Shown here: positions 45,308 to 46,146 of the stretch, piece by piece | How positions within the stretch are numbered: the first letter of the stretch is position 1 | Layout of the letters: each line of letters opens with the position of its first letter | DNA from: Alphaproteobacteria bacterium | Lineage (GTDB): Bacteria > Pseudomonadota > Alphaproteobacteria > SHWA01 | Reading direction: 5' to 3' | NCBI GenBank assembly: GCA_009693995.1 | Contig: SHWA01000001.1 | Coordinates: forward strand, 6,377-70,376 | DNA: 64,000 nt | Program-made: the position numbers and the translations under genes | Notes under the pieces: generated by a model | The model's database searches: none | Told to the model about the DNA's origin: nothing | The model's input: the letters and a program-made list of their open reading frames with translations, nothing else

Positions 45308-45682
45308 TCAGCGGATCGGCTTCGCCTCGAGGGCCTGCTGCCGCACCTGCTCCAGGAGTGCCCGCGCCCGCGCCGCCGCGGCGTCTGCGCCGGCTACGTC
45401 GCCCCGCACGTACATCGGGCGGATGTTCTCGATCTCGTCGAGGGCCCGCAGCATGTCCTCGACCGCGACGCCATAGCGGCGCCACTGGTTGCCGGTCAGG
45501 AAATAGGTGTGCTGCACGTCCTCCTTGGGCGGCGTGACGCGCGCCTGGTGCAGGGCGTAGTTGATCCACTGGGTGGCGGCCAGCATGGCGCCCTCGATCA
45601 CCATCTCGTGGTCGGCGGCGCCGAGCTTCGCCATGGTGCGGCCGATGCGCTCGGCGGACTCACGATGCTTCGCGGCTTCCAT
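45308..45682 (-). CDS. Hypothetical protein, 124 aa (paralog of upstream gene)
   Basis: ATG 45680-45682 with GGGGAGG RBS; no recognisable domain; alignable to neighbouring 152-aa protein (…A-M-x-A-x-T-x-x-I-N-x-A-L-H…ED…Y-x-x-x-G). Confidence 0.6.
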   Translation of the reverse strand: MEAAKHRESAERIGRTMAKLGAADHEMVIEGAMLAATQWINYALHQARVTPPKEDVQHTYFLTGNQWRRYGVAVEDMLRALDEIENIRPMYVRGDVAGADAAAARARALLEQVRQQALEAKPIR

Positions 45683-45687
45683 GGCGG

Positions 45688-46146
45688 CTACCTCCCCTGC
45701 GGCGCGAAGGTCTTGGCGATCGCCATGAGATCGGCGTAGGCGCGCTCGACCTTGTCCAGAATCTCCGGCGTCACCGGGTGGCCGTCGCGCACGCAGGGAT
45801 CGCGCCACTCCTCGATCACCTCCATCAGGTGCGCCATTTTCTGCACCGATTCGGGCAGCGGCTTCTCGATCTTGGGCCGGCCCACATGGAGCACGTCGCC
45901 AAGCGGGCGGAAGGCGTGCACCCAGCCCCCCGACGTCTTCCCCGGCACCATGTAGACCTCCGGCTGCTGCGGATACCAGGGGCCGTCCTCGGTGATGTCG
46001 GTCGCATGCAGCGCCGCGTTGATGGCGTTGGTGCCGGCGTTCATGGTCGCCCAGAACCAGATCTCGAAGTCCTGCACGCGGTCGAGCCGGCGGCGGAGCG
46101 CCTCCAGCCGGCCGATCTTCTCGAAATGGGCTGCAACTTTCACTGC
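45688..46146 (-). CDS. Hypothetical protein, 152 aa (paralog of downstream gene)
   Basis: GTG 46144-46146 with GGGAGGGA RBS; 3 nt upstream of the 124-aa paralog; no recognisable domain. Confidence 0.55.
   Translation of the reverse strand, partial: AVKVAAHFEKIGRLEALRRRLDRVQDFEIWFWATMNAGTNAINAALHATDITEDGPWYPQQPEVYMVPGKTSGGWVHAFRPLGDVLHVGRPKIEKPLPESVQKMAHLMEVIEEWRDPCVRDGHPVTPEILDKVERAYADLMAIAKTFAPQGR

Follow-up and report, generated by a model that had tools for sequence, protein, structure and literature searches.

A tandem pair of small paralogous genes in an alphaproteobacterial genome represents an undescribed, probably HEPN-related family that accompanies organic-acid catabolic operons

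The window analysed here is a stretch of 64,000 nucleotides from contig SHWA01000001.1 of a metagenome-assembled genome (MAG) of Alphaproteobacteria (assembly GCA_009693995.1), and its subject is a pair of small genes, A and B, that lie in tandem on the minus strand. Gene A (45688..46143) runs from a GTG start at 46143 to a TAG stop at 45690-45688 and encodes 151 amino acids (aa); its Shine-Dalgarno sequence, GGGAGGG (46151..46157), lies 7 nt before the GTG. Gene B (45308..45682) encodes 124 aa, from an ATG start at 45682 to a TGA stop at 45310-45308; its Shine-Dalgarno sequence, GGGGAGG (45691..45697), is found 8 nt ahead of the ATG and within the final codons of gene A. At the junction (45683..45690) the TAG of A is followed by a 5-nt spacer, CCGCC, and then by the ATG of B, a layout that is typical of translational coupling. 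The original prediction, which drew attention to the pair, placed it at the right coordinates, and the strong ribosome-binding sites that it assigned to them can be read directly from the DNA. Its description is otherwise accurate, except that the start of gene A was set one codon too far upstream (46146, for a product of 152 aa), and the gap between the genes, given as 3 nt, has to be corrected to 5 nt. The products are 100% identical to P0001 (151 aa; the NCBI record of the same MAG) for gene A and to P0079 for gene B, both of which are labelled hypothetical. GC content is even across the region, and no compositional anomaly is seen around the locus.

A direct BLASTP comparison of the two proteins gives nothing significant (E = 25), so that family profiles are needed to relate them. 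Profiles built from 41 A-type and 38 B-type homologues can be aligned along 103 columns (E = 1.2e-11 and a probability of 97.4% in hhalign), and the B-family profile retrieves A-type proteins with library-wide E-values of 2e-12 to 1e-5 in a search of 1.84 billion representatives. At L085, which is a divergent locus, BLASTP alone suffices to match the A-type partner to the B-type one (28.6% identity over 154 aa, E = 5e-14). By these comparisons A and B are an ancient, divergent paralog pair. The motif blocks by which the original prediction had related the two proteins are genuine and form part of a wider signature, and its description of a tightly coupled, same-strand pair of divergent paralogs is borne out. 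The main difference between the two types is an insertion of ∼28 residues before a D-V-x-H motif in the A-type proteins. Both genes are under purifying selection, with ratios of nonsynonymous to synonymous substitution rates (dN/dS) of ∼0.2-0.4 against relatives at 60-78% identity.

Homology searches retrieve 78 homologues of the gene A protein and 49 of the gene B protein. The superfamily as a whole is small, comprising 178 representatives at 50% identity with E≤1e-3, and its members are 60-200 aa long and free of domain fusions, bar one outlier of 1220 aa (E = 9e-6). It contains three branches, namely the A-type, the B-type and a diverse C-type (∼120-140 aa). Across 36 representatives from all three branches H6, N41, H45, D55, H58 and E85 (B numbering) are invariant, and D24, E26, M33, L44, R88 and R93 are conserved in at least 90%. 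The superfamily-conserved residues of gene A are H6, D25, E27, M34, N42, H46, D83, H86, E111, R114 and R119, and those of gene B are H6, D24, E26, M33, N41, H45, D55, H58, E85, R88 and R93; in addition, gene B carries Q38 where at least 90% of its relatives have a histidine. The conserved positions 26, 30, 33, 37, 41 and 45 of helix 2 show helical periodicity and thus form one face of that helix.

Reference databases offer little by way of identification. Pfam and NCBIfam scans of A and B return noise only, PADLOC and PHROGs give no match at E<0.01 for A, B and three C-type relatives, and a PDB sequence search with the profiles A1, A2 and A3 yields only chance matches (gelsolin, designed proteins and oligoribonuclease). 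Members are annotated as hypothetical in all sources, apart from odd labels; one A-type member is named HEPN domain-containing protein in UniRef, and a 128-aa B-type protein of the P0119 cluster, from metagenome contigs, is called 'acetate kinase' by JGI/IMG, an evident misannotation. Nothing that describes these genes was found in the literature, whether the pair itself, heterodimers of HEPN proteins in catabolic operons or the UxaA/TctC/sulfolactate clusters of Cupriavidus were searched for. The A/B family is an undescribed one, without a Pfam or NCBIfam model. The earlier statement that the proteins belong to no characterised family stands as far as these searches go, and it missed the distant relationship to HEPN domains described below.

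The pairing of A and B is conserved well beyond this genome. A scan of one genome per species yields 68 loci in Alpha- and Betaproteobacteria, distributed over Cupriavidus, Paraburkholderia, Caballeronia, Ralstonia, Pandoraea, Collimonas, Variovorax, Hydrogenophaga, Limnohabitans and Polaromonas, as well as Xanthobacteraceae and several MAGs; more members occur beyond the scan in Variibacter, in Rhodococcus (Actinobacteria) and in metagenomes. B directly follows A wherever the locus has room for it, the four exceptions being three contig ends and one A fragment, and on the question whether the pair is conserved together at all, which the original prediction had raised against itself, the answer is in its favour. 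Measured from the A stop to the B start, the spacing stays within the limits of a 13-nt overlap and a 6-nt gap at 74 of the 76 distinct loci, the commonest arrangements being an 11-nt overlap (32 loci), a 4-nt overlap (18) and a 1-nt gap (12). In Variibacter there is a 4-nt overlap of an Ldh_2 gene with A and another of A with B. A hetero-oligomer would be the natural reading of this strict co-occurrence and of stop and start codons that overlap or abut. Among the C-type relatives a recent tandem duplicate (L082, 65% identity), an A-like plus B-like pair (L085) and a single copy (L080) are found, and such single, duplicated and paired forms fit a dimeric protein that was turned into a heterodimer by duplication. 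Two loci carry partial copies of A: in Ralstonia pickettii (L057, 9646-9951) the full gene is immediately preceded by an extra copy that comprises residues 1-103 (57% identity), and in Cupriavidus sp. IDO (L072, 10001-10201) there is a lone fragment of residues 1-67 and no B gene. These fragments are remnants of duplication or decay. A plasmid search for the family gives three matches, of which the one examined carried no annotation.

The AlphaFold2 (AF2) model of the gene B protein (pLDDT 95) is a compact four-helix bundle with helices at residues 3-17, 25-46, 64-91 and 99-118. The model of the gene A protein (pLDDT 88), likewise a four-helix bundle, has helices at residues 3-19, 26-47, 98-111, 114-119 and 126-146, together with strands between residues 57 and 78; its ∼28-residue insertion, between helix 2 and the D-V-x-H motif, is predicted to form beta strands. 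In a Foldseek search against the PDB the matches of the B model with the highest template-modelling (TM) scores are HEPN domains, i.e., 1wol (TM 0.62, probability 0.98), 3o10, 2hsb and 1ufb, with TM-scores to HEPN structures of 0.56-0.62. The top-TM matches of the A model are the same HEPN set together with the HEPN domains of Csm6 and Csx1. Weak matches to the Pfam HEPN family occur in 3 of 39 C-type relatives, the best of which, P0190, aligns residues 3-120 to profile positions 1-116 of 117 of PF05168 with a score of 20.0 bits (E = 7.9e-4), just below the gathering score of 22. The R-x4-6-H motif of HEPN proteins is not present in A or B. In its stead the proteins have R88-x4-R93 (B) and R114-x4-R119 (A), an R-x4-R motif that is at least 90% conserved across the superfamily and has no conserved histidine after the arginine. 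By its position, at ∼70-75% along the sequence, this motif would fall about where HEPN RNases carry R-x4-6-H. Because of the top-TM matches, the near-threshold match of P0190 and the UniRef label, the A/B family is probably a divergent HEPN branch that has lost the RNase motif; formal HEPN membership fails, because no score reaches the Pfam threshold and R-x4-R stands in place of R-x4-6-H.

The helix topology suggests that the conserved residues split into two poles. A His/Asn/Asp pole would lie where helices 1 and 3 begin and helix 2 ends, and an Asp/Glu/Arg pole where helix 2 begins and helix 3 ends, together with the loop that joins helix 3 to helix 4.

In ∼75 other bacterial loci the pair sits within operons for the breakdown of organic acids. 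When the open reading frames (ORFs) up to 10 kb from the pair are clustered for 67 loci, of which 66 come from other genomes and metagenomes and one is this window, they include an Ldh_2 dehydrogenase in 61/67 loci, a UxaA-like GD_AH large subunit and a SAF small subunit in 54/67 each, a GntR regulator in 52/67, a TauD-family dioxygenase in 43/67, a PIG3-like zinc-dependent alcohol dehydrogenase (Zn-ADH) in 41/67 and a fused POR-type 2-oxoacid oxidoreductase in 39/67; TctC binding proteins and PntAB recur as well. The names given to these neighbours in the source records are generic, such as 'UxaA family hydrolase' and 'Ldh family oxidoreductase'. Several architectures can be distinguished. 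In Burkholderiaceae the run MFS-POR-Ldh2-GntR-GD_AH-SAF is divergent from A-B-ZnADH-TauD-porin-PntAB, and in Variibacter, Xanthobacteraceae, Limnohabitans and Polaromonas the genes SAF-GD_AH-TctC-Ldh2-A-B lie on a single strand. The closest relatives, which form the clade of this window (70-78% identity), have the order MBL, AcnX-large, AcnX-small, A, B and a HIBADH-like dehydrogenase, with Ldh_2 opposite. The gene directly upstream of A in L007-L013 and L087-L092 is probably an AcnX of uncharacterised specificity. In L078, Ldh2-A-B stands opposite GD_AH-SAF and adjoins an NMT1-type ABC system. In Rhodococcus and in a metagenome lineage ZnADH-A-B is followed by a CoA ligase and then by a YeiH-type 'sulfate exporter', and TauD genes are found close by; the CoA ligase passes the NCBIfam model for 3-(methylthio)propionyl-CoA ligase (920 bits against a cut-off of 822). 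The C-type loci adjoin 2-Hacid_dh, HIBADH-like, TauD or TctCBA genes, a radical SAM protein or a thiamine pyrophosphate (TPP) enzyme. As independent architectures, those of Rhodococcus, the metagenomes and the C-type branch once more show dehydrogenases, TctC or TTT transporters, TauD and CoA ligases next to the pair.

What these neighbourhoods have in common are NAD(P)-dependent hydroxyacid dehydrogenases, which belong to four families unrelated to each other, transporters for carboxylates, and a dehydratase or lyase of two subunits. Genes for the proton-translocating NAD(P) transhydrogenase (PntAA, PntAB and PntB) recur in ∼33-39 Burkholderiaceae loci (e.g., L004/L043), 3-6 kb downstream of B, and also at the end of L076; they would fit a hydroxyacid that is shuttled through two dehydrogenases with different cofactor preference. 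The architecture would suit an organosulfonate (sulfolactate/taurine) cluster in its split SAF and GD_AH subunits, Ldh_2, TctC, the TauD-family gene, the YeiH-type exporter, the NMT1-type ABC system and the CoA ligase match. The combination of a tripartite tricarboxylate transporter (TTT/TctC), Ldh_2 and a split UxaA-like enzyme resembles published sulfolactate clusters. Every sulfonate-specific NCBIfam model scores below its cut-off among the neighbour enzymes: Ldh_2 reaches 155-208 bits against an equivalog cut-off of 500, and TauD 212-227 against 313. A PDB search of GD_AH returns only galactarate dehydratase. Enzymes of sulfolactate, taurine and cis-3-hydroxyproline metabolism were considered for the neighbours and rejected, all scores being under the curated cut-offs, and the TPP enzyme of L082 is not Xsc (270 bits against 676). 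Several neighbour families point toward organosulfur substrates, and this is treated as a lead only.

The surroundings of the pair in the window itself are different. Directly upstream of A, as first reported, and on the same strand lies an RTX-repeat protein gene (46211..48500, minus strand), which belongs to the context and not to the module; it ends at 46211, 67 nt from A, and has a Pfam HemolysinCabind match of 90 bits. It consists of two ORFs, 47172-48500 and 46211-47227, which appear to be a single gene split by a frameshift near 47340; the gene is either a pseudogene or misassembled. ORF 47172-48500 ends '...SLSVSIAGVP', and the RTX repeat goes on in another frame ('...TGATLSAGTRNGDGTWSLTAAQLSGL...TVTAIATESDGD') into ORF 46211-47227. 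On the other side a sulfatase gene (43717..45266, minus strand), likewise context only, starts with a GTG at 45266, 41 nt after the B stop. Its N-terminal part bears a C-x-P-x-R motif (CGPAR; Cys-type, SPCGPARASLLTG) that is out of frame with the C-terminal ORF of 501 aa, and the Pfam Sulfatase match in the latter starts only at profile position 142; the gene has an apparent frameshift near 45050. Farther away, a DctP-like ORF (TRAP solute-binding; 48842-49468, minus strand) covers only positions 130-281 of 286 of its profile and may be incomplete, by truncation or by a frameshift. With it, three genes within ∼6 kb would be broken, which suggests that the assembly is locally in error or that genes are decaying. 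At 36406-41109 (minus strand) a long merged ORF and its neighbours, judged by eye from their translations, resemble an operon of the heterotetrameric sarcosine-oxidase type, with a 416-aa beta-like, a 95-aa delta-like and a large alpha-like part.

No terminator-like site is found on the minus strand between the RTX gene, A, B and the sulfatase gene, so that co-transcription is possible. The 64-kb window contains no homologue of AcnX, Ldh_2, GD_AH, TauD, Zn-ADH or HIBADH-like enzymes, and a type I secretion system (T1SS) domain is found in none of the ten large window ORFs scanned, which are catabolic. Conversely, homologues of the RTX protein (by tblastn), of the sulfatase and of the NIPSNAP protein that flank the pair here are missing from the 92 other loci, and for this reason the RTX adjacency is regarded as a lineage-specific rearrangement, coincidental and not a functional association.

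The reading towards which we lean, with reasonable though far from full confidence, is that A and B form an obligate heterodimer on a HEPN-like scaffold, which acts as an enzyme or accessory in the catabolism of hydroxy- or sulfo-acids. The two proteins would assemble as a pseudo-symmetric heterodimer, and their single-copy relatives as homodimers. The heterodimer would work in the cytoplasm on the breakdown of a small hydroxy- or sulfo-carboxylic acid, alongside the two-subunit dehydratase/lyase and the NAD(P)-dependent hydroxyacid dehydrogenases. Each subunit would have its two conserved poles linked by a conserved polar stripe along helix 2: a 'His pole' of H6, N41, H45, D55 and H58 (B numbering), which is a putative metal or acid-base site, and an 'Arg/Glu pole' of D24, E26, E85, R88 and R93, which holds the R-x4-R motif. 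In HEPN dimers the equivalent of the Arg/Glu pole forms a composite cleft. The corresponding A-B cleft, the former RNase site, may bind an anionic ligand, for instance a nucleotide cofactor or the carboxylate or sulfonate that arises as an intermediate. Here the pair would have parted from its usual partners and come to lie between the RTX and sulfatase genes by a chance rearrangement. In a more specific and rather unlikely version of this scheme, A-B would be an unrecognised two-subunit enzyme or a cofactor- or oxyanion-binding component of organosulfur catabolism (of the sulfolactate, taurine or methylthiopropionate type), in which the RNase site of the HEPN scaffold has been converted to an Arg/His anion or metal centre. 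It might then, for example, deal with the sulfite or sulfonate moiety that the neighbouring SuyAB-like lyase, TauD-family dioxygenases and CoA ligase release or carry.

Several points weigh against this assignment. The Foldseek matches to PDB structures are not significant (E = 0.2-1; none at E≤0.001), and PF05168 matches none of A, B or 79 family members. The two-pole clustering is deduced from helix topology, not coordinates, and both structure models are monomers; the heterodimer rests on genomic proxies. The partners vary with the architecture (UxaA-like, AcnX or none; Ldh_2, HIBADH-like, 2-Hacid_dh or Zn-ADH), and no single biochemical step is pinned down. Many of the counted loci are from related Burkholderiaceae, in which the synteny may be inherited rather than selected, and the usual partners are absent nearby both in this window and in a JGI contig with the order TetR-A-B-GST.

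Four other explanations have been considered. The heterodimer might bind a substrate or product of the pathway and modulate the GntR (or TetR) regulator or an enzyme, as a small-molecule sensor or adaptor without catalysis. The high frequency of GntR genes among the neighbours would suit such a role, as would the position of GntR directly upstream of the single-copy relative in L080/L081 and of TetR directly upstream of the pair in the JGI contig. Ligand-binding, non-catalytic HEPN domains moreover exist in sacsin and in the C-terminal domain of kanamycin nucleotidyltransferase. We nevertheless consider a sensor unlikely: the pair is transcribed with enzymes and not with the regulator (the Ldh_2-A overlaps and the AcnX-A-B-dehydrogenase and Zn-ADH-A-B-CoA ligase runs), the invariant set of three His, an Asp, an Asn and a Glu would suit a catalytic or metal site better, and the family is never fused to a DNA-binding or signalling domain. 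The same residues lend themselves to another proposal, namely that the pair delivers iron to, or repairs, adjacent iron enzymes, in a role like that of the helical-bundle iron-centre repair proteins. Three invariant His, an Asp and an Asn at one pole of a four-helix bundle would accord with it, and iron-dependent enzyme families recur as neighbours, i.e., the UxaA-family dehydratase, the Fe(II)/2-oxoglutarate enzyme TauD and AcnX, the Fe-S chemistry of which has been described (PMC8184944). No obvious iron enzyme is adjacent, however, in the Rhodococcus Zn-ADH-A-B-CoA ligase run, in L080, in the TetR/GST contig or in this window, and the fold search shows no similarity to hemerythrin-like or ferritin-like proteins, which makes an iron factor quite improbable.

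Since HEPN proteins are frequent in two-gene toxin-antitoxin modules, a pair of small adjoining genes with a HEPN-like fold also calls to mind a defence or toxin-antitoxin module, in which an RNase toxin would be neutralised by its paralog. With R-x4-6-H replaced by R-x4-R in nearly all members, no minimal nucleotidyltransferase (MNT) among the called neighbours in the inspected loci, where the partner is always the paralog, and negative PADLOC and PHROGs searches, this is very improbable. The stable chromosomal synteny in catabolic operons and the translational coupling to Ldh_2 point the same way, and both paralogs keep the same conserved residues and are therefore a poor fit to a toxin and its antidote. 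Least credible of all is an accessory to the RTX protein or to type I secretion, whether as chaperone, activator or immunity partner. It draws on the adjacency seen in this window only, with its 67-nt gap, common strand and lack of an intervening terminator-like site. An RTX homologue is found in 0/92 related loci, the nearest relatives lie in AcnX/dehydrogenase operons, the scanned ORFs lack T1SS domains and the RTX gene itself looks frameshifted. The comparative context thus effectively refutes the functional link to the RTX gene that the original prediction had entertained, and its suggestion of an effector with its partner is left without support in a context of cytoplasmic catabolism.

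To our knowledge, HEPN domains are known almost only as defence or toxin RNases or as inert binding domains. The paired branch described here, with its R-x4-R motif, its invariant His3/Asn/Asp/Glu set and its occurrence in catabolic operons of Alpha- and Betaproteobacteria and Actinobacteria, points to recruitment of the HEPN fold into metabolism. If the organosulfur version were true, it would be the first HEPN-derived metabolic enzyme module. Definition of the A/B family would account for a step or accessory that is as yet unassigned in widespread but uncharacterised operons, in which a UxaA-like enzyme or AcnX is combined with Ldh_2, TctC and TauD; Cupriavidus and Paraburkholderia are among the soil and freshwater bacteria that have them. 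This concerns HEPN specialists and annotators of Burkholderiales catabolic operons alike, and can be tested in genetically tractable hosts. In practice, the RTX adjacency in this window can be set aside as coincidence.

Among known systems, the UxaA-family SAF and GD_AH proteins and the large and small subunits of AcnX resemble A and B in that they share their operons and are two subunits encoded in tandem, but they are unrelated to A and B in sequence and fold. SAF plus GD_AH is the architecture of altronate and galactarate dehydratases and of the sulfolactate sulfo-lyase SuyAB. With the HEPN-MNT systems of the HepT-MntA type, A and B would have in common that two small, adjoining, co-transcribed genes have the HEPN fold in one or both products. 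In contrast to these systems, the partner is a HEPN-like paralog and not a minimal nucleotidyltransferase, the RNase motif is missing, and the neighbours are metabolic enzymes, without a defence-island context or a PADLOC match. A likeness also exists to the HEPN domain proteins themselves (PF05168; 1wol ST0689, 1ufb TT1696, 2hsb AF0298 and the sacsin HEPN domain 3o10), which would share with A and B the up-and-down bundle of four helices in ∼120 aa, a conserved basic motif between helices 3 and 4, and the tolerance of an insertion between helices 2 and 3 that is also seen in the A-type members. A and B differ from them in the replacement of R-x4-6-H by R-x4-R, in the additional invariant residues H6, N41, H45, D55 and H58 at the opposite pole, and in their occurrence as paralog pairs within catabolic operons.

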